DNA from: Chloroflexota bacterium
GTDB taxonomy: Bacteria > Chloroflexota > UBA5177
NCBI GenBank assembly: GCA_050695395.1
Contig: JBOGSL010000155.1
Span: 1-43,333, forward strand
DNA: 43,333 nt
Direction of reading: 5' to 3'
The translations under genes were made by a program, and so were the position numbers. The number at the start of each line of letters is the position of its first letter. Positions within the stretch are counted from its first letter, which is position 1. Positions 2,575-37,648 of this stretch are shown here, in pieces. The notes below the pieces were generated by a model. It searched no databases, had not been told where the DNA came from, and saw only the letters and a program-made list of their open reading frames with translations.

Positions 2575-3972
2575 TCAGCCGGGAGGAACCGGGTTTGAGA
2601 GAGTGACCCCTACGGGGATCAGGACGCGGCGCCTCCGGACGGCGAACCAGACCTCGAGCAGGAGTATGCCCAGCGTCAGGAGCAGGGCACCGGCCGAGGC
2701 GCCGGAGACGAACGAGAGACCTGTTGATAGAGCGCCGCCGGGACCGTTGGCGAGTGGCGACGGCAGATATGGAACAGCAGGCGAAGCCGGTGATCCGCGA
2801 TGAGAGTCAGCGGAGGCGCCACGACCCGATGTCGCCACAAGAGCGCTCGACTCTGCCGCACGGTTCTCCGAGAACGGAGCGACGACAGAAACGAGGGCCC
2901 TCGGGAATCGCGACAGGTTCGCGGAGACCACTGGGCCGTTCGCGGGCACATTCTTGGTGGCCGACGAGTGCAGCGGGCGATCTGCCAAGCTCGCGTATCG
3001 CGCTGCATGCCCCGCTGAGCCGCCCACGGTCTGTGCTCTACGTGTCTCGGGGAAGATCGTTCGCTGGACCGTCGCCTGACGGCTAGCCCGGGCGGACCTA
3101 TGAACGGGGCCGGCCGGCCGTCGCGCGATCGGTGAGTTGTTCCGGTACGAGTTCGTGGTGCTGATCGGCCGCTTGCTGCCCTCCGCTACCGCGCGTTGGG
3201 CCGGATCTCCGCGCCCGACAGTAGAAAGAGGCGAACGGTCGGAGGCACGTGACCGTTGAATCGTCCGAGTGCGGGCCGGCGAGGTCGATCGCGGCGAGGT
3301 GCCCGGCCTGGAGGCAGGCGAAGAGCGGACCAAGGTCGCTCTGGCGTTTGTGATTCTGCCGGATGCGGTCTGTGCCGGTTCGCTCGCCGTCCGGGCCGTC
3401 GTGCTCACGACCGAGGAAGCGGTCGACGTTGCCGTGCCGGCGGTGCTGCTCGCCGCTTGACCTGCTTGGCTCGCCGCGGCGCTTCCGGTAGCGACAGTTC
3501 CGGTTACGGCGTTCGTCGCTGAATTGACGGTAGTTTGGGCAGAGCCCGCGACCGGGGCTGCCGCTTGGGTTGCGCTGGTCGTGGTCTGGTTGACGGTTGC
3601 GGCCGTCGTTCCCGTCGTCGCTTTCACGGTACTTGTGGTGGTGTCGACTGTCTGATGGGCGGTAGTCGAGACACTGGAGGTGGATGATGTCACGGTCCGA
3701 GTGGCCGAGGACGTGGTCTTGCCGGTGGTGGCCGACGCGCCGTTGATGGTTGACGACGCCGTGGCGGTTGCGCCTTTGACGGTCGAGCTTGTCGCCGAGG
3801 TGGCCTTGCTTGTGGTGGACGACGCGGCGTTACCGACCGCGGTGGTCACGGGCGCTAGTGGGGGCGAGGCCGCGAAGGCCCGCTGCGAGCCAAATAGCAC
3901 GACAAGAATGACGCTCGCGAGGATTGCGGCCGCGAGGCCCATCAGTCGACCTATGGTTTGTGCTGTGTTCAT
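2575..3972 (-). CDS. Secreted Thr/Ser/Ala-rich low-complexity surface protein with a basic Pro/Arg/Ser linker and a C-terminal TM helix followed by RRRR
   Basis: The ORF is 2575-4005 with a GTG at 4005. The ATG at 3972 gives the signal-like N-terminus MNTAQTIGRLMGLAAAILASVILVVLFGSQRAFA. A long T/S/A-rich tract follows. The C-terminus reads LANGPGGALSTGLSFVSGASAGALLLTLGILLLEVWFAVRRRR. The start is uncertain. Confidence 0.7.
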   Translation of the reverse strand: MNTAQTIGRLMGLAAAILASVILVVLFGSQRAFAASPPLAPVTTAVGNAASSTTSKATSATSSTVKGATATASSTINGASATTGKTTSSATRTVTSSTSSVSTTAHQTVDTTTSTVKATTGTTAATVNQTTTSATQAAAPVAGSAQTTVNSATNAVTGTVATGSAAASQAGQAASSTAGTATSTASSVVSTTARTASEPAQTASGRITNARATLVRSSPASRPGTSPRSTSPARTRTIQRSRASDRSPLSTVGRGDPAQRAVAEGSKRPISTTNSYRNNSPIARRPAGPVHRSARASRQATVQRTIFPETRRAQTVGGSAGHAARYASLADRPLHSSATKNVPANGPVVSANLSRFPRALVSVVAPFSENRAAESSALVATSGRGASADSHRGSPASPAVPYLPSPLANGPGGALSTGLSFVSGASAGALLLTLGILLLEVWFAVRRRRVLIPVGVTLSNPVPPG

Positions 3973-4131
3973 GGTTGTCGAGGGAAGGCCTGTTCCCACC
4001 TCCACACTTCCAATCTAGACTCGCGTTTGTCGAAAAATCAGCGGCACGGGGTTACGGTTGGGTTTCGAATCGCGGATGGTAGAAACGCGTTGCAGAGCCG
4101 CTGGCTCATCCCGGCGGGCTAAGATTGGCGT

Positions 4132-13278: not shown

Positions 13279-15633
13279 TTACGCCGAGCGACGCGATTCC
13301 TGCCGGAGCCAGAGAAGCAACTCGCCGGCCGGAAGCGGCTGGCTGAGATAGTAGCCCTGTATGCCATCGCAACCCATCGCTGCTAGAGTATCCCAGGTGT
13401 CGCGGCGCTCCACGCCCTCTGCGATCACTGCCAACCCCAGATTGTGCCCCAGATCAATTACCGCCCGTACGATCACCTCGTCGTTATTGCCGTTGGCCAT
13501 GTCAGAGACGAACGAACGGTCGATCTTCACCTCGGCTGCTGGGATCTGTTTGAGATATGCCAAGGACGAGTAACCGGTACCGAAATCGTCAATCGATACA
13601 CGCACACCCATCTCGTGTAGCGGCTGCAGAATAGCCATGGCTTGGTGAACATCCGCCATCACAGCGCTCTCGGTCACCTCCACGGCTAGCACAGACGGAT
13701 CGAGCTTGTGATGAGCGAGATTGGTAGCAATGGTCGACGTGAGATCTCTATCGAGTAAACACTGGGCGGAGAGATTGATAGCGACCATGACATCCGACCC
13801 TGCGGCCCGCCACGCGCGGCACCACCGCAGCGCCTCGTTCAGCACCCAGAGAGTGAGGGGTTTAATCAATCCGGTTTGCTCCGCCAGGGGAATAAATTCA
13901 TCGGGCGCAATCATGCCGCGGACGGGATGGTGCCAGCGAGCGAGCGCCTCGACTCGGTTGACGTCACCGTCGCTCAGGCGCAAGCGCGGCTGAAAATTGA
14001 GAGAAAGCTGTCCGTTGTGGATGGCCTGGCGTAGGTCTTCAATGAGGTCGAGCCGTTCCGGCTGGTGCTGGTCGTGCTCGGATTCGTACACCACGATGCC
14101 CCTGTGCGACCTCTTTGCAACGTACATCGACACGTCGGCGCGACGTAGCAAGGACTCGCTGTCGTCACCGTGCTCGGGAAACAGGGCTATGCCGATACTG
14201 GCCTCGACCGTGAGGCGGTGGCCGTCTATCGGAAACGGGTGAGCCAGGGACGCCTGAATCTTGTTGGCCACCCGCACCGCGCCCAGCAACTCGGCTTCCG
14301 GCAGAACCACTGCGAACTCGTCACCACCCAGTCGAGCCACAGTGTCCGGCTCGCGCAGAACCTGCCTTAGCCTGGTGCTCGTTTGTGAGAGCAGGAGATC
14401 TCCGTAGTGATGACCGAAGGTATCGTTGATCTCCTTGAAACCGTCGAGGTCCATGAGTAACAGCCCGACGCGTCGGTCGGTGCGGCGAGCGGAGAGCACG
14501 GCTTGCCGCAGTCTGTCGTTCAGCAACGTTCGATTGGGCAGATCCGTGAGAGCGTCATGCAGGGCCTGATGCTCGAGGGCGGCCTCGAAACGACGGCGTT
14601 CGCTCACATCCCGTCCGATCCCCTGGACGCCGATCGGGCGTCCGTCCCGGTAGAGCAACTGAGTATTGACTTCGATGGGGAGACGGCCGCCATCACGCTT
14701 TGTGATGCTCAGCTCGTACGTGGTCGACTCGCCTCCCGCAAGTTTGTCAGCGATCATTCGGCGGGCCTGGTCGAGCGACTCCGGAACGATCACATCGGCC
14801 ATATTCAGGGCCAACGCCACCTCTTCGCTATACCCTGTGAGGCGCTCGGCCATGCGATTGATGGACGTGAAGTTGCCCTGCAGGTCGATGGTGAAAACGA
14901 TGTCGCCCGCATTTTGAAAGAGGTCGTGATAGCGCTGCTCCCGCTCGCGCAATGCCTCTTCTCGCTGCATCCGTTCCGATATATCGTGGGCCACGAACGT
15001 GATTGCGACGGCCCGCCCATGGTCGTCCGTCACCGTTGCTGAACTGACTTCGGCGGGAAAGAGCGAGCCGTCCGACCGGCGGGCCTGATAAACGGAATTG
15101 TACCCGCTTTCCACTTCCAGATTGGCGCGCTCCCGCAGCACCGCCGCGACGCGGTCGCCTTCTTCCTCGGCGGCCATCTCGGCGATGTGCTTTCCCAAGA
15201 TCTCGTCGGTAGAGTAGAGGAAAAGCTCCGCTGCCCGACGATTGACCTGGCAGATGCGTCCTTCCAGGTCCGTGACGGCGATCGCGTCCGGCGATGTCTC
15301 TATCAGGCTGCGATAGTGCTTTTCACTGGCGCGAAGGCTTTGTTCAACCTGCGCTTGGCGGGAATTGGCCTCGCGAAGAACGTCGGTCTCCGATCGCGCC
15401 CTGGCTCGTTCCTCCTTTACCTGAAACGAAGAGAGCCCCAGCAGGCAGACACCCACGATCAAAGCGAGGATCGCCATTCCGGCGTCCCCTGCAATGAGTG
15501 TCTTGACATCGATGATAGCCATACTGGCCAGGGCGACCGCCAGGATCGGCAGTCGAGGCCACCAGCGCTCGAGATGAATCGTTTCCCCACTCCCCGAAAC
15601 GGGCGCGATTGACGAAGGTCGCATGGGGAGCAT
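13279..15633 (-). CDS. Membrane-anchored PAS-PAS-GGDEF-EAL c-di-GMP signalling protein (diguanylate cyclase/phosphodiesterase)
   Basis: Intact RLGGDEFAVV, EALARW and IDDFGTGYSSLAYLK motifs. Two N-terminal TM segments and PAS-like segments are present. Confidence 0.9.
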   Translation of the reverse strand: MLPMRPSSIAPVSGSGETIHLERWWPRLPILAVALASMAIIDVKTLIAGDAGMAILALIVGVCLLGLSSFQVKEERARARSETDVLREANSRQAQVEQSLRASEKHYRSLIETSPDAIAVTDLEGRICQVNRRAAELFLYSTDEILGKHIAEMAAEEEGDRVAAVLRERANLEVESGYNSVYQARRSDGSLFPAEVSSATVTDDHGRAVAITFVAHDISERMQREEALREREQRYHDLFQNAGDIVFTIDLQGNFTSINRMAERLTGYSEEVALALNMADVIVPESLDQARRMIADKLAGGESTTYELSITKRDGGRLPIEVNTQLLYRDGRPIGVQGIGRDVSERRRFEAALEHQALHDALTDLPNRTLLNDRLRQAVLSARRTDRRVGLLLMDLDGFKEINDTFGHHYGDLLLSQTSTRLRQVLREPDTVARLGGDEFAVVLPEAELLGAVRVANKIQASLAHPFPIDGHRLTVEASIGIALFPEHGDDSESLLRRADVSMYVAKRSHRGIVVYESEHDQHQPERLDLIEDLRQAIHNGQLSLNFQPRLRLSDGDVNRVEALARWHHPVRGMIAPDEFIPLAEQTGLIKPLTLWVLNEALRWCRAWRAAGSDVMVAINLSAQCLLDRDLTSTIATNLAHHKLDPSVLAVEVTESAVMADVHQAMAILQPLHEMGVRVSIDDFGTGYSSLAYLKQIPAAEVKIDRSFVSDMANGNNDEVIVRAVIDLGHNLGLAVIAEGVERRDTWDTLAAMGCDGIQGYYLSQPLPAGELLLWLRQESRRSA

Positions 15634-15743: not shown

Positions 15744-16505
15744 CTAGGAGTCGATCAGGACGACGGGCTCCGGGCCGGTCAATCCCAGCGCGGTCCACTG
15801 GGCCAGGTCGTGGCCGAAGACACAGCGTGTATTAGGGCGTTCCGCCAGCCGGCGTAAGCGCCGGAGGCTCGAACGGGCCGCAGTTACATCTACAACTGCC
15901 CCTAACTTGTCCTCCCGCCAATGCTCTTCTGTGTAGACGGCGTCCCAGGTGAACAGCCAGTCTTGGCCGGGGCTGTGGATCAAGACCGATTGGTGGCCCG
16001 GCGTGTGTCCGGGCGTGAGCAGCATATCGACGCCGCTCACCGGCGACCAGTCACCCCGCACGTTGCGAAATGTGACAAAGGGACCATCCCAAAACGCCGG
16101 ATCTTCACTATCTGCCACCGATTCCAGTTCTGCATCCTGGACCCAGAGGGGGACGTCGCGCAACAGCGGATTGCCTCCGGCATGGTCGAAGTGTAGGTGG
16201 GTGTTCACCACCATGTCGAGTTCGGAGGTACGGAGTCCGAGAAGCTCCAGTTGTGCGTCAACTCGCTCGTGAGGACCGACGAGGGGCTTGATCCAGGCGG
16301 GGTCCAGGTCAAAGGCCCGACTGAGACCGCCCGGGTCACCCGCAGCGGCCGGCGGAACTCCAGTGTCGATGAGAATGTTCTTTCCGTCTTGCTGAACCAG
16401 GAGCATCATGACCGGCAGAGTTATCTTCCGGTGCGAGTCGTCGCCAGGGTGGATGACGGCCCGGTCAACGGATAAGCGGCCCCCCGACAGGGCAGAAACC
16501 TTCAG
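15744..16505 (-). CDS. AiiA/AhlD-like N-acyl-homoserine-lactonase-family MBL-fold hydrolase, probably starting at a CTG codon
   Basis: HLHFDHAGGN, TPGHTPGHQSV and FGHD motifs. The first ATG is at 16409. However, the frame is open upstream and encodes LKVSALSGGRLSVDRAVIHPGDDSHRKITLPV, which aligns with the AiiA N-terminus. The only start-type codon there is the CTG at 16505. Confidence 0.8.
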   Translation of the reverse strand: MKVSALSGGRLSVDRAVIHPGDDSHRKITLPVMMLLVQQDGKNILIDTGVPPAAAGDPGGLSRAFDLDPAWIKPLVGPHERVDAQLELLGLRTSELDMVVNTHLHFDHAGGNPLLRDVPLWVQDAELESVADSEDPAFWDGPFVTFRNVRGDWSPVSGVDMLLTPGHTPGHQSVLIHSPGQDWLFTWDAVYTEEHWREDKLGAVVDVTAARSSLRRLRRLAERPNTRCVFGHDLAQWTALGLTGPEPVVLIDS

Positions 16506-16509
16506 GCGT

Positions 16510-18780
16510 CTACCCGTTGGCTTCCGGACTCGTCACGATGACTTCTTCTACCGGCGGCTCGTCGGACGAGGTGGTGTCACCCATGTAGCCCGCGTCGGGC
16601 GGATCGTACGGATCGGGGTCATGACCGGTGCCGACCTCGACGCCGCCGCTGGTTGTGCCCGAGTAGCCGCTTCCCTCTCGTACAGTACCGGGGCCCGCGA
16701 TTTCGTCGCCCGTTGGAAAGGGAGCGCTGTGGGTGCTCGGCGCGACCTCGTTGTCAGGTTGATTGTCCTTCGTCATGCCGTCCTCCGTTGCCATCGCTGA
16801 TGCCACCCGCATCATCCGTACCGCGGCACCGCGGAGGCGCGTGCCGTTTGTTTCGGGAGCAACGTAGCGCAACGTGAGCCGGCCGTTGGTCTGTCGCTTG
16901 AGGACATCCCCCGACTGCGCGCCCCACCGGTACTCGATCCATTGACGGTGGTAGTCGCTGGGCGTTTCTACCGTAAGTACGCCATCTGCGCACGACAGGG
17001 GGCGGAGCGGCGCAAACCAGCCCTCGATAGCAAGCGCCCCGACCGACTTCTCAAGCTCGCGGCAAAGGAGGCTCCACTCCGCCGTTCCTTCGCTGACAGG
17101 TGTGCGTGGGCTACCATGGCTTTCCTTGCCGTTGTCACTGCCGTGATGGGCACCATTTCCATTGGCGTGAGCTACGCCATTCCCGTTGGTGTGGCCGGCG
17201 TCACCGACGGAAATCGGCGCGAGCTCAGCCTGCCAATCCGGACGAGCCGGCACCGGCGGCGTCGGCTCGCCCTTTCTCGTTTCATATCCGTAGGGCTGAT
17301 AGTTGTCGCTGCGATAGTAGGAGTCATTGCCGCGATTGACGCAGTTTACGATGCAACCGGCGATGTTGATGCCGGACGGCCCCAGTACCTCGATCGTTCG
17401 CGCCACCGTCCGTCGCGTGGTCGAGCCGAGACGGACGACGAGGACCGCTGCATCACAAAGGCCGGACAGGATTGCCGAGTCGGCGAGAGGAAGCACCGGG
17501 GGACTGTCGATTACCACGATGTCAGCGTGATCTTGTAGCTCGCGTAGAACCTGCCCCATCCGGTGGGAACTGATGATTGGGCCGGGATTGGGCGGCAGGG
17601 GGCCGCTGACTATTACTCGAAGTCGAGGCTGCTCCGTAGGGAGCAAGTAGTCTTCCGTAGTAGCCGATTCGTCCAACAACAAGCTGGTCAGACCCGGCTG
17701 TACGTCCGGGTGAAAGATGGAGGCGACACTTGGCCTGCGTAAATCCAGATCGACCAGGATGGTCGACTTGCCGGATTCGGCGAAAGCCGAGGCTAGATTG
17801 CTGGCCACGGTTGACTTGCCTTCTCCCTCCATCGCACTCGTGACGAGCAGGGTACGGGGGTGCTTGTCCAGCGTGGTGAAGGCGATGTCCGCGCGCGCAA
17901 GGCGGAAGGCTTCGGCCACGGGCGAGGACGGGTGATGGGCGAGGATCAGCGATCGGTCCGAGGGGCGCTTGCGTGGGAACTCGCGTGTGTCGGGAATGGC
18001 GCTGAGTATGGGAAGGTCGGTGACGCGGCTCAGGTCCTCGGATCGGCGAATGGTGCTGTCCATCTGGTCGATAGCTACGCCGCCTACTCCGACGATGAGG
18101 AATACCAGCAAAAAGGCCAACGCGGCATTCAGCGACCGGTGCGGGCTGCTCGGCGTCAGGGGCGCCACTGCCGGGGAAACAACACGAACTATGTTTGACC
18201 GCTGCAGCTCCGCCATGCGGGTGTTGTTTTCTACCTGAACAAGATTGTCGTAGCGGTTTCTGTCGTGCGCTCTCTTGGCGGCGTGTTCGTCGCTTTCTAT
18301 CCGGTCGAGGAGTGCCTTGTAGAGCGACTGATCCCACGACTGCTGCCCCTTGATGAACACCCTGGCGACGGCGTTGACCATTGCGGCCGCCAGCACCGGA
18401 TCGTGAGACGTGGCGGAGCAGCTGAAAAGCGATGTAGTCCCGCTGCTCTGGCAGACCAAGTTTTGGGTAAGGACCTTCTTTTCCCCCGCTGATAGCGTGG
18501 GGTGCAGCGCCCCTTTGACCATAGCCAGCGCAGCTTTGATGTTGGGGGGCTGCGCCGCGACCGTGGCGTCCGTGAGCGCGCCGGCGCTGTCGTACTGGGG
18601 ATCAACCGGATTTGCCTGACTGGGTTGGCCGATCTGCACCTGCATCACGCTGGTGGCCGTGTAGAGCGGGCGAATCTCGTACTTCGTGTAGACATACGAT
18701 CCCGCCCCGGCCAGCAGGGCTAGCACCAGGGCTATAGGCAGCCAGCGCTTTGCAATTCGAAAGTAATCGTTCAGCCGCAC
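16510..18780 (-). CDS. Polysaccharide co-polymerase / BY-kinase (Wzz domain + CpsD/Etk-like tyrosine autokinase) with a roughly 255-aa C-terminal extension
   Basis: N-terminal TM plus a Wzz-like periplasmic region and a second TM (LAFLLVFLIVGVGGV). Walker A is SAMEGEGKST, Walker A' is ILVDLDLRRP and Walker B is IVVIDSPPV. The Tyr cluster reads DSYYRSDNYQPYGYE. A long extra tail follows. GTG start. Confidence 0.9.
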   Translation of the reverse strand: MRLNDYFRIAKRWLPIALVLALLAGAGSYVYTKYEIRPLYTATSVMQVQIGQPSQANPVDPQYDSAGALTDATVAAQPPNIKAALAMVKGALHPTLSAGEKKVLTQNLVCQSSGTTSLFSCSATSHDPVLAAAMVNAVARVFIKGQQSWDQSLYKALLDRIESDEHAAKRAHDRNRYDNLVQVENNTRMAELQRSNIVRVVSPAVAPLTPSSPHRSLNAALAFLLVFLIVGVGGVAIDQMDSTIRRSEDLSRVTDLPILSAIPDTREFPRKRPSDRSLILAHHPSSPVAEAFRLARADIAFTTLDKHPRTLLVTSAMEGEGKSTVASNLASAFAESGKSTILVDLDLRRPSVASIFHPDVQPGLTSLLLDESATTEDYLLPTEQPRLRVIVSGPLPPNPGPIISSHRMGQVLRELQDHADIVVIDSPPVLPLADSAILSGLCDAAVLVVRLGSTTRRTVARTIEVLGPSGINIAGCIVNCVNRGNDSYYRSDNYQPYGYETRKGEPTPPVPARPDWQAELAPISVGDAGHTNGNGVAHANGNGAHHGSDNGKESHGSPRTPVSEGTAEWSLLCRELEKSVGALAIEGWFAPLRPLSCADGVLTVETPSDYHRQWIEYRWGAQSGDVLKRQTNGRLTLRYVAPETNGTRLRGAAVRMMRVASAMATEDGMTKDNQPDNEVAPSTHSAPFPTGDEIAGPGTVREGSGYSGTTSGGVEVGTGHDPDPYDPPDAGYMGDTTSSDEPPVEEVIVTSPEANG

Positions 18781-30478: not shown

Positions 30479-31591
30479 TTAGTTGAGCCGGGGGCTTGCA
30501 TAGATCGGCCGCCCGTGCGACCAATCGATCTCGATGTACTGGCGGGTGTGCGCCAACGGAGACCGATAGGTCACCATGTGCAGGGTGTGGGTGTCGATCA
30601 CCTCACCGGTGTCTCCCACGAAGACGTATCGTCCGCCCCGGCTGAAGCTGAGCCAGCCTTCGCGTGATTCGTACTCGTTCTCCAAGCCCGCCAGTCCGTG
30701 CTTGAGCTTAATGTTGGCCACCTCCCGGGGAGGTGAGGCGGGCAATCCGGAGACGTCGAAGACGTGAACATAGTTATTCGGCATGTCAATCACCCAGACC
30801 CTCTTGCCGTTGGGTGACAGGGCGATCCCGTGTGAAGGCACTCCCTCCGATGTTTGGTTCCAGCTGAAACCCTTCGGGGCCACGGTGTAGAGCACCTTGC
30901 CGGTTTTCAAACTGCTGACCTGGAAGCCCAACAATCCCTGAGAGGTGGTGAAGGCCAGCGTCTCGGCATGATTGATAACGAAAGGCGTAACTCCTCCGGC
31001 CAGCGGGCCTATGCGTTTCGTCACGCGATTGGTCTTCGTGCTTGCCACGTAGAGATACGGGTCGCTGTGGGGCCCCATGTACACCCGGTGACGGCCGCAG
31101 GCCGTGTCATGCGTCCCGAGCCCCGTCTCGATCGTAGCCACTACGTCTCCGTTAGCCGTATCAATGACCCGCCAGTGGGTGCCCTGCGTGTAGTCGCCTT
31201 CGGGGAGATACATGCGCTTTCCGTTGGGAGTAAGACACATGGAGTCGACGCCGATGCTGTACGAGCGCCGCCAGACGAGTCGGCCCGTCTGCAGTGTGTA
31301 GGCAGCCACCCAGCCGTCCGACCGGGACACGAGGTAACTGACGTACAGGTCGCCGTTCTTGACGCTCGCCGCCACACCCTTGATCTCCGTAACGCCCGGA
31401 AGGCGAAACGTTCCCGCGGCCCTCATGTGGTGATCGATGTCATAGATGTAAGCGCGTCCATCGGCGAACACGTACTCCTGGTGCTTCACTCCCGGACTCG
31501 ATTCATGTCCGTCGGCTCGACCCGAACACGCCGCGAGCATCCAACAGGCGATCAGCAACAAGACCACGACCCGGACCAGACGCCCCGTCAC
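30479..31591 (-). CDS. Beta-propeller (YVTN/lactonase-like repeat) lipoprotein
   Basis: The GTG at 31591 gives VTGRLVRVVVLLLIACWMLAAC (lipobox LAAC). Repeated blade-like segments are present (LTPNGKRMYLP, IALSPNGKRVWVID, YVFVGDTGEVID). The start is uncertain. Confidence 0.65.
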   Translation of the reverse strand: MTGRLVRVVVLLLIACWMLAACSGRADGHESSPGVKHQEYVFADGRAYIYDIDHHMRAAGTFRLPGVTEIKGVAASVKNGDLYVSYLVSRSDGWVAAYTLQTGRLVWRRSYSIGVDSMCLTPNGKRMYLPEGDYTQGTHWRVIDTANGDVVATIETGLGTHDTACGRHRVYMGPHSDPYLYVASTKTNRVTKRIGPLAGGVTPFVINHAETLAFTTSQGLLGFQVSSLKTGKVLYTVAPKGFSWNQTSEGVPSHGIALSPNGKRVWVIDMPNNYVHVFDVSGLPASPPREVANIKLKHGLAGLENEYESREGWLSFSRGGRYVFVGDTGEVIDTHTLHMVTYRSPLAHTRQYIEIDWSHGRPIYASPRLN

Positions 31592-31657
31592 GATTTGCCC
31601 AGCGCGAATCGACGCCCTAAGTTGCTTGGCAGCGGATCCCGGCGGCCTGTTACATTG

Positions 31658-33028
31658 ATGCCACTTGGCACCCAAAGGATGCGAATGCAAGCCGCCGCCG
31701 ACCCCTTTCTGTCCGAGTCGGGCGATCTGGTGCTCAGAACTGCCGCCTGGTACGGCGATCGCCAAATCCGGTTGCCGGTTCGCCCGGCGTGGTCGATAGA
31801 GGTGAACGGTCCGAGAATCGGAGTAGCTTTACCATTATCTGACGATGATATCGCGACGCGTCTCACCGCGCCAACAGGGACGAAGACGCTTCGGGAGCTT
31901 GCTGAGGGCAAGAAGCATCCACTCATCGTGGTGGATGACCTCAACCGACCCACACCGACGGCGCGGGTTATCCCGACCATTCTGGCGGAACTGGCCGAGG
32001 CCGGCATCGAGGCGTCGAGCGTGGGGATCATGCTTGCTCCCGGAACACACGGAGCGCCGCCGCCGGACGGTCCGGCGAAGAAGGCGGGGGACATCGGGGC
32101 CCGTAACTGCCGGCTCTACGTTCATGACTGCCGCGGCGAGACTGTCAACGCCGGCTCAACTTCCTTCGGGACACCCATCCTGGTCAATCCTCTCGTGATG
32201 AAATCCGATCTGCTCATCGGTTTGGGCGGTGTCTATCCGAACCAGACGGCCGGTTTTGGCGGCGGGACGAAGCTGGCCCTGGGCGTGCTCGGTTTTCGTT
32301 CGATTGCCCATCTCCATTTGTCTCACACCCCGTCGGCATGGGGACATCCGGATCAGGCGAGCGCTCTGAGAACGGACCTGGACGAAATATCGCAGCGGAT
32401 TGGGCTTCGGTTCGTGATCTCACTGGGGCTCAACGCCAATCGCGACGTGGTACGGGTAGATTGCGGCGATCCCCAGCGCTACTACCCGGAGGCTGTGCAG
32501 TGGGCGCGGGAAGCATACCTCTCGGCTCCGCCCGGAACTGACTCGAACGTGGTGATAGCGAATGCGTACCCCAATGACTGCTCTCTCACGTTCATCACCA
32601 TGAAGGGGTTGGCTCCGTTTCGCGGCGCCCCGGCCGGCGCATCGCGTGTCGTTATCGCCTCGTGCCCCGAGGGCCATGGGTTCCACGGGCTGTTTCCATA
32701 CGGGAACGCCCCGAAGGAACATGGGCGCGAAATGATGGCTCTGCGCGCAAGTCTCGCCTTGCGCCGCCCTGGTCGCTGGATCCCCAAGATCGCCCGCAGG
32801 CTTCAGGCGGAGGTCCGCAAGCATGGCCCTCTCGAATCGGACGCCGAGCGTCCTGTCTGGCTTTACCGTCCTCCCGGACCAGATCAACCGCCGCTATCCG
32901 AGCGCCCGGGCTTGAAGATCCGGTCCAACTGGCACGATATCGTTCACGAGGTCAATCGAGAACAGGGCGACGAGAATCTGAAGGTCGTCCTCTATCCCTG
33001 CAGCCCGCTCCAATACGTCGCGACCTAG
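31658..33028 (+). CDS. LarA-family (DUF2088, nickel-pincer 2-hydroxyacid racemase/epimerase-like) protein, divergent
   Basis: LIVVDDLNRPTPTARVIPTIL, MLAPGTHG and GGVYPNQTAGFGGGTKLALGVLGFRSIAHLH parallel the LarA N-terminal-domain motifs. Start candidates are ATG 31658, 31679 and 31685. The first 268 codons of the 724-aa ORF are antisense to the propeller gene and were discarded. Confidence 0.7.
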   Translation: MPLGTQRMRMQAAADPFLSESGDLVLRTAAWYGDRQIRLPVRPAWSIEVNGPRIGVALPLSDDDIATRLTAPTGTKTLRELAEGKKHPLIVVDDLNRPTPTARVIPTILAELAEAGIEASSVGIMLAPGTHGAPPPDGPAKKAGDIGARNCRLYVHDCRGETVNAGSTSFGTPILVNPLVMKSDLLIGLGGVYPNQTAGFGGGTKLALGVLGFRSIAHLHLSHTPSAWGHPDQASALRTDLDEISQRIGLRFVISLGLNANRDVVRVDCGDPQRYYPEAVQWAREAYLSAPPGTDSNVVIANAYPNDCSLTFITMKGLAPFRGAPAGASRVVIASCPEGHGFHGLFPYGNAPKEHGREMMALRASLALRRPGRWIPKIARRLQAEVRKHGPLESDAERPVWLYRPPGPDQPPLSERPGLKIRSNWHDIVHEVNREQGDENLKVVLYPCSPLQYVAT

Positions 33029-33967: not shown

Positions 33968-34738
33968 TTACAGATGTTTGATTGCCACGACTTGTCCGGT
34001 TCCCAGAACGATCAATGGGACGTCGCGCGAATCAAAGAACTCATCCACACTTTGTCGCGTGGATCTTCGAAAGCGGTACAGGCCGTATTCGTTAATCATA
34101 ATAGCCCCTCCGGCCTTGAGCCGCGGCCAGAACCACTCCAGGCACACCCGAGTGGCCTCGTAGGATACGACGTTGACGTGCACGAACGCGTACTCGTCGA
34201 TGTCAGCCACTTCTTCCAGCGTGTTTGGAATCACCCCGGGGTGAAAGACAGCAAAATCGAATGGTGCCAGACGGGCTTCGACCTGGGCGAGGCTCGCGGC
34301 AAAATCACCCGGCTCGGCCGCGTCCCGTTCTGGGACGGTTGTTTCCCGCGGCATGCCCGTGAATGTATCAAACAGGTGGAGGTTGCGCGGCTTGCCGTCT
34401 GCCTCAATGAGCAGCGAGAGCAAGTGCGCGCTTCCACCGGTCGCCACGCCGCACTCGGCCACGTCGCCCGTTATGGCCGCGGACGTTTTGAAGAATTGAT
34501 AAAGCATGTAGCCGTGCGGCTGCTCCCACAGGACGTGCCCGGAACGGTGCACAGTATCCCATGAACGGTGAAACTCTCCGGCCGGGTCGTACCACGGCGC
34601 ATAGACACGGCGACCGTACGGAACGCTTACCGGGTACGCGTGATTCCTGTACCAGCGTCGCTCGATGAGCTTCAGCCCTCTGTACCACGGAGTGCGAAGA
34701 ACCCCGCTAATGCCGGACTTGCCCGGAACTACACTCAT
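33968..34738 (-). CDS. TylF/NovP/MycF-like (macrocin-O-methyltransferase family) methyltransferase
   Basis: The ATG at 34738 overlaps the ATP-grasp stop (ATGA), with GGGGGAGG upstream. Motifs are GDVAECGVATGGSAHLL, LHLFDTFTGMP and KAGGAIMINEYG. The upstream 171 codons of the 427-aa ORF overlap the ATP-grasp gene and were discarded. Confidence 0.75.
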   Translation of the reverse strand: MSVVPGKSGISGVLRTPWYRGLKLIERRWYRNHAYPVSVPYGRRVYAPWYDPAGEFHRSWDTVHRSGHVLWEQPHGYMLYQFFKTSAAITGDVAECGVATGGSAHLLSLLIEADGKPRNLHLFDTFTGMPRETTVPERDAAEPGDFAASLAQVEARLAPFDFAVFHPGVIPNTLEEVADIDEYAFVHVNVVSYEATRVCLEWFWPRLKAGGAIMINEYGLYRFRRSTRQSVDEFFDSRDVPLIVLGTGQVVAIKHL

Positions 34739-35988
34739 GCTTGAACCTCCCCCTCGCGAGCGCGGAACCGGGCCGCCCCGTCGCGCGATATGCCAACAGA
34801 AGAACGTTTCCTCCGCTTTCGATCGCCACCTCGCCGAATCGAAGCGGAAGCCATGCGCCAGAAGGGCTTCATGTCGTCCGCCGCGAACCAGCAGCACTCC
34901 CTCACGCCCCGTAACGAACGCACCCACGCGCCCACTCCGAGGTTGCTGGTGCGCATGTGGTGCAAGGATGACACGACATCGAACGGCTCCATGAGCCACT
35001 TGCGACCGTCCGACATCACTCCGGCCGGCACCTGCTGGCCCGTGAGATCGAGGTACATCGCTCGGGCAACGTCCGTCCCCGACGAGTCGACAAAGAGGCG
35101 GAAGGTGGCACCGATTCGCGGATTGACGTCGAGCAGCTTGTAGCGCCCGTCCCGTCGATCGTACTTGAAGCCGATGTCGAGTATACCCCGGTATCCCACG
35201 TCCTTCATGAATCGCTCGGTCCGGCGGCTGACCGTGTCGTTTGCCTGGCATACCCCGAGGCTGGTCACGCCGCCCTGACTGGGAAACTCGCGCAGCTTTC
35301 GACCGGTCCCCCCGAAGAGGCAGCGCGAGTCGTCATTGAAGTATCCGTTGAACATCCAGATATCCTGTGAGTCGCCGGGGACGTACTCCTGCAGCATTAC
35401 ACTCGGCCGGCCAGGCGTCTCCAGCGCATCGTACTGCGTCAGCAGGGACTCCGGGTCACCGGCCAGAACCATGGCTACCCCGGTTCGCCTCTTGAGCGCC
35501 GCGGTGTCGATACCTTTGAGCATCACGGGAAATCCCGCGTGCCGTGAGAATTCTTCAACCTGGCCTCGGTTTTCCGGAAAGACCGTCGATGCCGTCGGCA
35601 CGTCGTGTTCCTGACAGAGCCTGTACATCGTTCTCTTGTTGGACAGACGGTCGGCTAAATCTGGCGGCTGAGCCGGGAAGAGGAACGTATCGCAAAGCAT
35701 CCGAGCGTTGCTGGACACGAACAAAGCGCCGCGATCGTCCGTCGGAATCAGGAGCGGCTGTCCCCCCACCCGCTCGCCCAGGCGCACGAGCCATTCCACT
35801 GATTCGGGTTCCGCCCTTGCCCGGAAGTCCCAGCAGTGGCTCTGAATCCAGAAGCGCGAACGAGCGACGGGCGAGCGCATGTCATCGTGAACGCCGATGA
35901 CCGGGACGCCGAGCCGCCCGAGACTCCGCGCTATGCCGTGGCCCACGCCGCTGCCGGCCAGCACCACCACCGGCTTCGAGACATCCAA
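34735..35988 (-). CDS. ATP-grasp carboxylate-amine ligase (COG3919-type predicted ATP-grasp enzyme)
   Basis: KPVVVLAGSGVGHGIARSLGRLGVPVIGVHD..., FPVMLKG, MLQEYVPG and LLDVNPRIGATF. TTG start at 35988, 8 nt after the comB stop. Confidence 0.75.
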   Translation of the reverse strand: MDVSKPVVVLAGSGVGHGIARSLGRLGVPVIGVHDDMRSPVARSRFWIQSHCWDFRARAEPESVEWLVRLGERVGGQPLLIPTDDRGALFVSSNARMLCDTFLFPAQPPDLADRLSNKRTMYRLCQEHDVPTASTVFPENRGQVEEFSRHAGFPVMLKGIDTAALKRRTGVAMVLAGDPESLLTQYDALETPGRPSVMLQEYVPGDSQDIWMFNGYFNDDSRCLFGGTGRKLREFPSQGGVTSLGVCQANDTVSRRTERFMKDVGYRGILDIGFKYDRRDGRYKLLDVNPRIGATFRLFVDSSGTDVARAMYLDLTGQQVPAGVMSDGRKWLMEPFDVVSSLHHMRTSNLGVGAWVRSLRGVRECCWFAADDMKPFWRMASASIRRGGDRKRRKRSSVGISRDGAARFRAREGEVQA

Positions 35989-35996
35989 CTGAGTGT

Positions 35997-36758
35997 CTAT
36001 CCCGCTGCCTCGACTGCCGTGGCCGATAACTCGAGATCCGCCCGCGTGCCGATCGCTGTGATCTCGCCCCGTTGGTATCGATAAACACCGGACAGGTCGT
36101 TGATGTGCGTAAGAACGAACTCGAGATCAGCATCCTGGCCGCTGCGGCGAAGATACTCCGCGCTCTTCCCGCCCAGGATCGCCTCGACCGGAGCCTCCGC
36201 CCAGCGGTCGATCACGGCGCGAGTCTGTTCATTCACCGGCTGGTATCCGGCCTCGAGCAGTCCCGCCGCCACGAGAGCACAGCCAAGTTGGTCCTCTTCG
36301 CGGAACTCGGCCCGCGATCCCGCTCCGATAATCGCGACCCTGGGGTGGCGATCGACGAGATATTCGATCTGAGCGCTGTAGTTGCGCAGACATGCGACAT
36401 ACATGGCCTGCGACTCGGCGGCGTTGCAGATGAGCTGAGTTCCCGAGGTGGAGAGCAGAATCATGGGCCGGTCTATGTCGCTTCGACGAGCGACCTGGGC
36501 CGGGCTGTTGGTGATATGGAACCCGTACGGCATATTGCCGCCCAGTTCTCCCGCCAGCAGCGGATAGTTGAGCCAGGCCGCCACGGGCACCGCCGCCTCG
36601 AGCGACGGGACCGGAAAGCAGCGGCGTCCCAAATCAACGGCCGTAACGGCTGTCGTGGTAGCGCGGATGACATCGATGGCCACAACGGCGTATCCGCCGG
36701 CGTACGACGAGACACTTTCGGGGAAACAGTCAATGGCGACCAGGCGAGGCACCGACAC
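35997..36758 (-). CDS. comB: 2-phosphosulfolactate phosphatase (ComB family)
   Basis: VVAIDVIRATTTAVTA, LAGELGGNMPYGFHITNSP and LLSTSGTQ match ComB-family signatures. The GTG start lies 1 nt after the comA stop. Confidence 0.8.
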   Translation of the reverse strand: MSVPRLVAIDCFPESVSSYAGGYAVVAIDVIRATTTAVTAVDLGRRCFPVPSLEAAVPVAAWLNYPLLAGELGGNMPYGFHITNSPAQVARRSDIDRPMILLSTSGTQLICNAAESQAMYVACLRNYSAQIEYLVDRHPRVAIIGAGSRAEFREEDQLGCALVAAGLLEAGYQPVNEQTRAVIDRWAEAPVEAILGGKSAEYLRRSGQDADLEFVLTHINDLSGVYRYQRGEITAIGTRADLELSATAVEAAG

Positions 36759-36759
36759 G

Positions 36760-37569
36760 CTACGCCCTATCCGCTCGCGGCCGCAGATTTGGCTTGGCGA
36801 AAGCGTCGGAATGTAGGCCGCGTCGGTAGATCTCGACTCTCAGTAGCTCCTCTAACCGGACGTTACAGAGCTGCACTTGATTGCCGAAGTGATCGAGCAG
36901 GGCGAACTGGCTGGGCTTGTTGGGGGCCTCGAACATCACGGTGTCGAGCCCAAACGCCCCGGCGAATCGATCGGCGAAGGCCGGATTAAAGTGGCCGCTG
37001 TCGTCGAAAAGTCCCACACCCTGCGCACTTTCCCGCGCCTCGACCACGAGCCGCTTCGCTCCCGCCTCCAGCCAGCTGTAACCTTGCTGGATTAGCTCGT
37101 TGACCGTTTCGTCCACGAACGGTCCGGTGTGTTTTTTGCCCAGCTCGAACTGAACCTCGAGGCCACGCTCTGATGCCATTCCGATGATCTTGTTGGGGTC
37201 CAGAGCCACATCGGTGAAACCCTCGCCGCACTCGATTCCCGCAGCACCCACATCTGCGCATAGATCGAGGTAAGCCTCGAGCTCACCTTGGGTCACTGCG
37301 ACCTCGAACGGTCCGCCGCCAGTGCAGGTGGCCACGCCGTGCTCTCGAGCGGCGGCGAACTTGCGCCGCGTCGCAGCTTCGTCCGCCACCAGCCAACAGG
37401 CCATAGAGATCTTCAGCGATGACATCAGGTGTGCACTCTGGTCTAGATGGCTCTCCAGCGTCACAGGGTCGTACCCCGGATCGAAGGGGCTGGTCAGAGG
37501 CTGCAAATCCGGAACACCAATGCGATGCAGGTAATCACGAGTGGTGGGGCGACTGGCAATATCGGTCAT
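36760..37569 (-). CDS. comA: (2R)-phospho-3-sulfolactate synthase (ComA family)
   Basis: ATG at 37569 with AAGGA upstream. VVEARESAQGVGLFDDSG and VMFEAPNKPSQFALLDHFGNQVQLCNVRLEELLRVEIYRRGLHSDAF closely parallel methanogen ComA as I recall it (IIEGRESGKSIGLFDKEG and VIFEAPQKSQQVAFILKFG...LETLRRGLRGDTF). Confidence 0.85.
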   Translation of the reverse strand: MTDIASRPTTRDYLHRIGVPDLQPLTSPFDPGYDPVTLESHLDQSAHLMSSLKISMACWLVADEAATRRKFAAAREHGVATCTGGGPFEVAVTQGELEAYLDLCADVGAAGIECGEGFTDVALDPNKIIGMASERGLEVQFELGKKHTGPFVDETVNELIQQGYSWLEAGAKRLVVEARESAQGVGLFDDSGHFNPAFADRFAGAFGLDTVMFEAPNKPSQFALLDHFGNQVQLCNVRLEELLRVEIYRRGLHSDAFAKPNLRPRADRA

Positions 37570-37619
37570 AGAAACGTCCTTCTCGCTAAAGCTGCGACAC
37601 CTTCTCGCAACGTGGGGAG

Positions 37620-37648
37620 AGCATAGCACGGAAGCAGGATGACGGCAA
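37620..37648 (-). promoter_or_regulatory. Candidate sigma70-type promoter of the comA operon: -35 TTGCCG, 17-nt spacer, -10 TATGCT
   Basis: The minus strand reads TTGCCG(37648-37643)-17 nt-TATGCT(37625-37620), about 50 nt upstream of the comA ATG. This is a pattern match only. Confidence 0.3.

Follow-up and report, generated by a model that had tools for sequence, protein, structure and literature searches.

A DnaA domain I-like module behind the tyrosine cluster of a predicted membrane tyrosine kinase from a Chloroflexota exopolysaccharide cluster

In the Wzc and Etk proteins of Escherichia coli and in the split CapA/CapB system of Staphylococcus aureus, two transmembrane (TM) helices flank an extracytoplasmic domain and are accompanied by a cytoplasmic P-loop kinase with Walker motifs and a C-terminal Tyr cluster, and the genes of these bacterial tyrosine kinases (BY-kinases) lie in Wzx/Wzy-type clusters that include Ugd. 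In the BY-kinase topology, all sequence past the second TM helix (TM2) is cytoplasmic, and how these kinases select their substrates is poorly understood. DnaA domain I, wherever it has been studied, is a module for protein-protein interaction and self-association. Here, we describe a gene from a Chloroflexota bacterium (contig JBOGSL010000155.1, of which the whole stretch analyzed, 43,333 nucleotides (nt), is called the window below) whose product shares the kinase motifs, the Tyr cluster, and the type of gene cluster with these systems and resembles them in its predicted membrane topology. Whereas known BY-kinases end between a few and ~35 residues past the Tyr cluster, this protein adds 257 residues, including a predicted folded domain that resembles DnaA domain I.

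The gene is an uninterrupted single open reading frame (ORF) in the ORF list (16510-18780 on the minus strand; Table 1), and the NCBI entry of identical sequence is named 'MAG: polysaccharide biosynthesis tyrosine autokinase [Chloroflexota bacterium]', MAG being a metagenome-assembled genome. The kinase domain scores 149.6 bits against TIGR01007 (eps_fam; cut-off 108) over residues 290-490, and a phmmer search of the kinase part against the PDB returned CapA/CapB (4jmp) as the best match (E 5e-37), with Etk, BceF, VpsO, and Wzc among the further matches (range E 5e-37 to 1e-24). The Walker A, A', and B motifs all align with the same motifs in CapB. The Tyr cluster, YYRSDNYQPYGY, lies exactly where an earlier note on this DNA had placed it (~17284-17319), and its YY pair is invariant in an alignment of the protein with its nine closest homologues. 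In the membrane part, TM1 and TM2 are predicted at residues 13-31 and 217-237 with an extracytoplasmic segment between them, an architecture that is kept in the aligned homologues P0002-P0010. The match to GNVR (PF13807) over residues 176-235 is weak (20.7 bits, below the cut-off) and, unlike the Wzc/Etk-type BY-kinases, the protein gave no significant match to Wzz (PF02706) in the Pfam search. Overall, the assignment of the N-terminal 500 residues to the BY-kinases, as made in the earlier note, is confirmed at the sequence level by the profile score, the structure matches, and the Walker motifs, and the kinase appears to be of the fused type and is competent-looking.

The residues that follow Tyr499 (residues 500-756, nt 16513-17283) correspond closely to the continuation of ~255 residues noticed earlier, and the three parts that had been proposed for it, namely a His/Asn/Gly stretch, a segment of ~75 residues, and an acidic tail, were found as a low-complexity linker, a DnaA domain I-like module, and a C-terminal tail. 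Most of the nine closest homologues, which are 37-50% identical over the alignment, end 25-35 residues past the conserved YY, the exception being P0010 with an unrelated tail of ~250 residues; that this tail is a divergent DnaA_N domain was ruled out (hhalign probability 0.07%). Across 82 BY-kinase loci, the median length of the tail, counted from the position equivalent to residue 500, is 23 residues and the true maximum is ~117, versus 256 here, and solved BY-kinase structures align up to a few residues from their own C-termini. The C-terminal tail has a net charge of -13 and no match in Pfam or PHROGs. Its acidic segment is predicted to be disordered, and AlphaFold2 (AF2) places a single low-confidence helix at about residues 651-666, the predicted local distance difference test score (pLDDT) of the tail being 53-66 or below 50. 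A phage origin of the module or the tail was rejected, as neither has a PHROGs match. Separately, six BY-kinases from Coriobacteriia/Actinomycetota MAGs (L006, L013, L027, L033, L044, and L045) have tails of ~85 residues past the Tyr cluster, each of which ends in a strongly hydrophobic, TM-like helix, so that a membrane anchor would lie on either side of the kinase domain; they represent a further tail variant that recurs among BY-kinases.

The module was recognized by Pfam DnaA_N (PF11638) with 31.0 bits in the full protein, above the gathering cut-off of 24.6, and with 36.1 bits (E 5e-9) in the isolated segment, and no family in the Pfam search competed with DnaA_N for it. A phmmer search of the module against the PDB returned DnaA alone; the best match (E 1.5e-5) spans residues 11-85 of 85 in 4tps_B, which is Bacillus subtilis DnaA domain I in complex with SirA. 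In an exhaustive phmmer search of 1.84 billion representative proteins, 50 matches were obtained at E ≤ 1e-3. All matches examined were of the DnaA_N type except for a spurious repetitive protein (P0129); they comprise genuine DnaA proteins, short N-terminal fragments, and a few non-DnaA contexts, and kinases account for none of these 50 closest relatives. The sequences most similar to the module are bona fide DnaA N-termini, which share 32-50% identity with it. An alignment of the module with 39 DnaA_N sequences, including those of E. coli and B. subtilis, is nearly gap-free across the domain. Its sole invariant column is a Trp of helix α1 that corresponds to W6 of E. coli and W569 of the protein described here, and W588, P591, Y610, and W614 occupy the columns of E. 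coli W25, P28, F46, and W50. A leave-one-out hidden Markov model (HMM) built from this alignment minus the module still scored 84.3 bits over residues 568-644.

Structure prediction points in the same direction. A high-confidence AF2 model, made from a multiple sequence alignment (MSA) of 69 DnaA_N sequences, has a pLDDT of 91-95 across the module and the topology α1-α2-β1-β2-α3-β3. When this MSA-biased model was compared with the PDB by Foldseek, the top matches were 4tps_D/B (E 3e-6, target-normalized template modeling score 0.78-0.80, root-mean-square deviation 1.6 Å, 75 columns), followed by DnaA domain I of E. coli (2E0G) and Helicobacter pylori (2WP0), and then by the KH-like domain of DciA. 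The likeness to DnaA domain I that the earlier note had proposed for the ~75-residue segment is thus borne out by PF11638, the match to 4tps_B, the leave-one-out HMM, and the predicted fold, which agree with one another, and membership of the module in the DnaA domain I family is supported at the level of sequence and model.

The resemblance to DnaA ends with this domain. The protein scores 16.9-19.2 bits against the DnaA model TIGR00362 versus a cut-off of 343.9, with model positions 1-76 alone aligned, and a tblastn search of the window with nine DnaA proteins matched nt 16825-17136 alone, with no remnant of the AAA+ domain (domain III) or of domain IV. The protein is not a DnaA: the module shares with DnaA domain I (PF11638; 4TPS, 2E0G, 2WP0) the full-domain profile, the KH-like predicted fold, and the W/P/aromatic core, but whereas domain I begins an AAA+ initiator that continues into domains III and IV, the module is located at the C-terminus of a membrane kinase. 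A segment predicted to be disordered also follows the module, as domain II does in DnaA, and the tail may by analogy be the counterpart of domain II (inferred from PMC5448010).

Of the properties of domain I, dimerization and protein binding are conserved best (PMC5448010). In E. coli, the domain dimerizes via an α1 patch of L5, W6, Q8, C9, L10, and L33, and a hot-spot on α2/α3, consisting of E21, W25, N44, F46, and W50, binds DnaB, DiaA, Hda, YfdR, HobA, and SirA (PMC5448010). In the module, the residues aligned with the α1 patch are E568, W569, L571, L572, C573, and C597, by which its hydrophobic character is kept (alignment compared with PMC5448010). The α2/α3 hot-spot is partly kept in the alignment, with W588, S608, Y610, and W614, and differs from that of E. 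coli in that E21 is replaced by an alanine (A584). Neither set of residues names a partner, because they are conserved across nearly all DnaA_N sequences.

Table 1. Features of the kinase gene and of a downstream signaling gene, with positions in the window.
Feature	Position (nt)	Strand	Remarks
Polysaccharide co-polymerase/BY-kinase fusion gene, complete	16510..18780	-	756 aa; GTG start; stop codon 16510-16512
N-terminal membrane part: TM1, extracytoplasmic loop, TM2	18070..18744	-	Hydrophobic stretches in translation
BY-kinase catalytic domain, cytoplasmic	17281..17970	-	aa 271-500; phmmer against PDB, motifs aligned
Walker A, MEGEGKST	17809-17832	-	GEGKST = aa 319-324
Walker A', ILVDLDLRRP	17731-17760	-	aa 341-350
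Walker B, IVVIDSPP	17497-17520	-	aa 421-428
Tyr cluster, YYRSDNYQPYGY	17284-17319	-	aa 488-499; 5 Tyr per 12 residues
Low-complexity linker, Gly/Pro/Ala/His/Asn-rich, predicted disordered	17083..17280	-	aa 501-566; composition; pLDDT <50 in single-sequence AF2
DnaA domain I-like (DnaA_N, KH-like) module	16846..17082	-	aa 567-645, ~79 aa; profiles, alignment, AF2
C-terminal tail, Gly/Thr/Pro/Asp-rich	16513..16845	-	aa 646-756, 111 aa; composition
PAS-PAS-GGDEF-EAL protein	13279-15633	-	Two genes downstream of the kinase

The reading that we favor, with a probability of roughly 0.55, is that of a membrane BY-kinase to which the 5' portion of a dnaA-type gene has been appended, giving it a cytoplasmic module for docking or self-association. 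In this reading we infer the dnaA origin, the cytoplasmic location (from BY-kinase topology), and everything that concerns function. In this lineage, the 3' end of the gene would have been rearranged such that domain I, together with a disordered, domain II-like stretch, came to lie behind the Tyr cluster. The module and its disordered tail resemble DnaA domains I-II cut before domain III, which suggests the capture of a dnaA 5' fragment, and since the nearest DnaA N-termini are no more similar than stated above, the donor would be old or unsampled. The module would then be tethered to the kinase ring in the cytoplasm by a flexible linker of ~66 residues. It could recruit a partner or substrate to the kinase by docking, or it could self-associate and so link neighboring kinase protomers independently of the ring contacts that are controlled by phosphorylation. 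A tethered cytoplasmic docking or self-association domain, comparable to the FHA and TPR additions of other BY-kinases, is the most likely role.

Several observations weigh against this reading. The high-confidence AF2 model leans toward the domain I fold because its MSA was made of DnaA_N sequences, and a single-sequence AF2 prediction of the whole extension was poor (pLDDT 43); the order of its secondary structure elements is the same as in the high-confidence model. The fusion comes from a single MAG contig, and its protein cluster contains no other member. Among the best 120 of 1,537 significant BY-kinase homologues, the query included, PF11638 is present in the query alone. A search of the extension against an index of 5.8 billion proteins gave no match at E ≤ 1e-3 and missed the parent protein too, which probably reflects the limits of a word index and makes this null result weak evidence of absence. 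Searches of the GTDB species representatives and JGI metagenomes with the extension produced pattern matches and no relative that tblastn confirmed. We also collected 162 BY-kinase loci (1.6 Mb), consisting of 80 genomic and 80 metagenomic loci with 6-kb flanks and the loci of two relatives (L001 and L002), and a six-frame search of these with the leave-one-out HMM detected no DnaA_N-like module at E ≤ 10. As the fusion does not recur in the collections searched, there is no sign of selection maintaining it. Finally, the contrast in GC content between the three codon positions (GC1/GC2/GC3) is weak in the linker, at 0.70/0.61/0.64, which could be explained by its low-complexity composition.

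The survey of BY-kinase C-terminal architectures that the earlier note had suggested gave mostly short tails (82 loci) and DnaA_N in 0 of 162 loci. A fusion of two genes that are adjacent in other genomes was rejected as the source of the protein, as no DnaA_N gene was found near the BY-kinases in these 162 loci and 1.6 Mb at E ≤ 10. The earlier note knew of no described fusion of this kind, and full-text searches of the literature found no BY-kinase fused to DnaA domain I.

The 3' flank of the gene differs from that of its relatives. The BY-kinase stop codon of each of the two closest relatives is followed, after 29-38 nt, by the start of a DUF4012 gene (659-674 residues; window positions 16410-16512 compared with L163:3118-5134 and L001:9582-11634). 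No DUF4012 gene is present in the 43-kb window, where a gene for a metallo-β-lactamase (MBL)-fold hydrolase follows the kinase instead, and synteny with the two relatives stops exactly at the 3' end of the kinase gene. The missing DUF4012 gene indicates that the 3' flank of the kinase has been rearranged in this lineage. The extension is not a degenerate remnant of DUF4012, a candidate that was ruled out as there is no protein or DNA similarity between them.

Such a rearranged flank, with its missing DUF4012 gene, could also have produced a functionless accident, in which, after a recent rearrangement or the loss of a stop codon, the reading frame of the kinase extends into a dnaA 5' fragment that had been captured; the kinase would work normally, and the tail would be neutral or slightly deleterious and eventually be lost. 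The single occurrence, with no orthologue that carries the fusion, and the great variation in length and sequence of BY-kinase C-terminal tails both fit this explanation. However, none of the conserved core positions of DnaA_N is lost in the module (84 bits against the leave-one-out HMM), which is free of decay, internal stops, and indels. Its identity to any DnaA found is at most 50%, which fits long independent evolution as an intact domain or an unsampled donor, and GC3 in the module and the tail is as high as in established genes. We regard an accident as unlikely, although it is the alternative that we would take most seriously.

The same junction raises the question of whether the fusion is an artefact of assembly or base calling in the MAG, through a lost stop or an indel that merged two genes or through a misjoin inside the linker. 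In addition to the end of synteny at the 3' end of the kinase gene, this would account for a protein that is unique to one MAG contig, for the absence of the product's contig from the exact look-up records, and for the codon-position contrast being lowest in the linker (residues 501-566). Against it, GC1/GC2/GC3 are 0.66/0.51/0.76 in the module and 0.67/0.61/0.74 in the tail, matching the rest of the gene and its neighbors in the same frame. The only in-frame ATG, GTG, or TTG in the linker is a GTG at residue 510, with none at residues 511-636, so that the module cannot be a separate gene that merely lacks an upstream stop; there is no in-frame start for 57 codons upstream of the module, and the remaining two frames of the linker contain many stops. 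A misjoin into dnaA should continue into the AAA+ domain; instead, the module is followed by the low-complexity tail, a stop codon, and the unrelated MBL-fold gene. Tetranucleotide composition has no break across the junction, and the 5.4-kb segment downstream of the gene correlates with the upstream segments at 0.94-0.96, the same level as within either side. A gene beyond the junction, encoding a PAS-PAS-GGDEF-EAL protein, is 43% identical to a gene near the kinase of the relative at L001, where it is oppositely oriented. Inspection of the junction for repeats, a terminator, or a promoter revealed nothing meaningful. An artefact thus appears improbable, and from the codon-position GC, the reading frame, and the tetranucleotide profiles, we read the fusion as a probably real, lineage-specific rearrangement.

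The neighborhood of the gene is that of a typical Wzx/Wzy-dependent exopolysaccharide (EPS) cluster. A gene for a Wzy_C protein is located immediately upstream of the kinase on the same strand, a Wzy-kinase order that is common to the relatives, and the cluster also contains genes for a Wzx-type flippase, four GT4 glycosyltransferases, a polysaccharide deacetylase, an FkbM methyltransferase, an epimerase/dehydratase, and a UDP-glucose dehydrogenase (Ugd). Downstream, the genes for the MBL-fold hydrolase and then the PAS-GGDEF-EAL protein follow on the same strand, and the latter suggests that cyclic di-GMP signaling is associated with the EPS cluster. No replication genes were identified in the window. 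Two further features of the window were noted. Genes for phosphosulfolactate synthase (ComA) and 2-phosphosulfolactate phosphatase (ComB) are present in the EPS cluster (35997-37629, minus strand), next to genes for a TylF-type methyltransferase and a 724-residue ORF with a lactate-racemase N-terminal domain (33968-35251, minus strand, and 30854-33028, plus strand), and together these raise the possibility of an unusual sugar decoration of sulfonated or lactyl type. At the left end of the window, two long ORFs on the minus strand (43-2505 and 2575-4005) have an abnormal GC2 of 0.68-0.70, above their GC1, and the larger of them (43-2505) has no Pfam match; both are probably not true reading frames.

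A further possibility is that the module acts on replication, either as a decoy for the partners of domain I or as an adaptor that brings them to the membrane kinase for sequestration or Tyr phosphorylation. Candidate partners would be DnaA itself, bound by self-association of the two domain I copies, the replicative helicase or its loader, or a regulator of the DiaA/HobA/SirA type, and polysaccharide production or the biofilm state would then be linked to replication initiation. The module is closest to true DnaA N-termini, and the W6-equivalent Trp and the aromatic residues at the positions of W25, F46, and W50 are kept (roles according to PMC5448010). The known substrates of BY-kinases also extend far past the polysaccharide machinery and include single-stranded DNA-binding proteins and RecA in B. 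subtilis, where PtkA phosphorylates SsbA, SsbB, and RecA (PMC4754617). By contrast, E21, which is needed in E. coli for the binding of DnaB and DiaA, is Ala here, and W6, W25, and W50 are conserved in nearly all DnaA_N sequences and hence silent on specific partners. The window also lacks replication genes, and the arrangement does not recur in the other bacteria searched. We consider this explanation very improbable, and still less probable the stronger claim that the module is a functional adaptor that holds the replication-initiation machinery at the membrane kinase and links EPS/biofilm signaling to replication control.

DnaA_N domains do occur outside DnaA. Examples of non-DnaA proteins with DnaA_N-like modules are P0160, which combines a helix-turn-helix domain with a C-terminal DnaA_N, P0138 and P0170, which have a C-terminal DnaA_N, P0122, and DciA with its KH-like domain. 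Where their domains are recognizable, the other contexts are DNA-binding or replication-related, and neither kinases nor membrane proteins of polysaccharide export are among them. DnaA_N was also observed in tandem, in two or three copies, in P0121, P0127, and P0122: P0121, a DnaA of 815 residues from Longimicrobium sp., has three copies ahead of its AAA+ domain, and P0122 (429 residues, 24 cluster members) has three DnaA_N/DnaX_C-like repeats.

Among the BY-kinase homologues, additions past the Tyr cluster have precedents. The homologue P0037 (774 residues) carries an FHA domain at residues 709-762, P0063 (727 residues) carries a TPR at residues 589-622, and P0010 has a long helical tail, so that these proteins follow the same principle of a C-terminal add-on past the Tyr cluster of a Chloroflexota-like BY-kinase. 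The gene described here differs from P0037 and P0063 in the appended family, which is DnaA_N. FHA is obviously tied to phospho-signaling, while we know of no such tie for DnaA_N. Overall, the architecture is that of a BY-kinase with an unusual accessory interaction domain, on an add-on principle already seen with FHA and TPR.

As a single MAG contig is all that is known to carry the fusion, the weight of the case is limited. Even so, a BY-kinase with a built-in, recognizable docking domain would be a natural experiment in the recruitment of substrates or partners. If the module does still recognize the partners of DnaA, the production of envelope polysaccharide would be connected to replication control. 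The case adds to the view of DnaA domain I as a portable interaction module, and of BY-kinases as proteins that accrete domains in the region past the Tyr cluster, where FHA, TPR, and now DnaA_N have been found.

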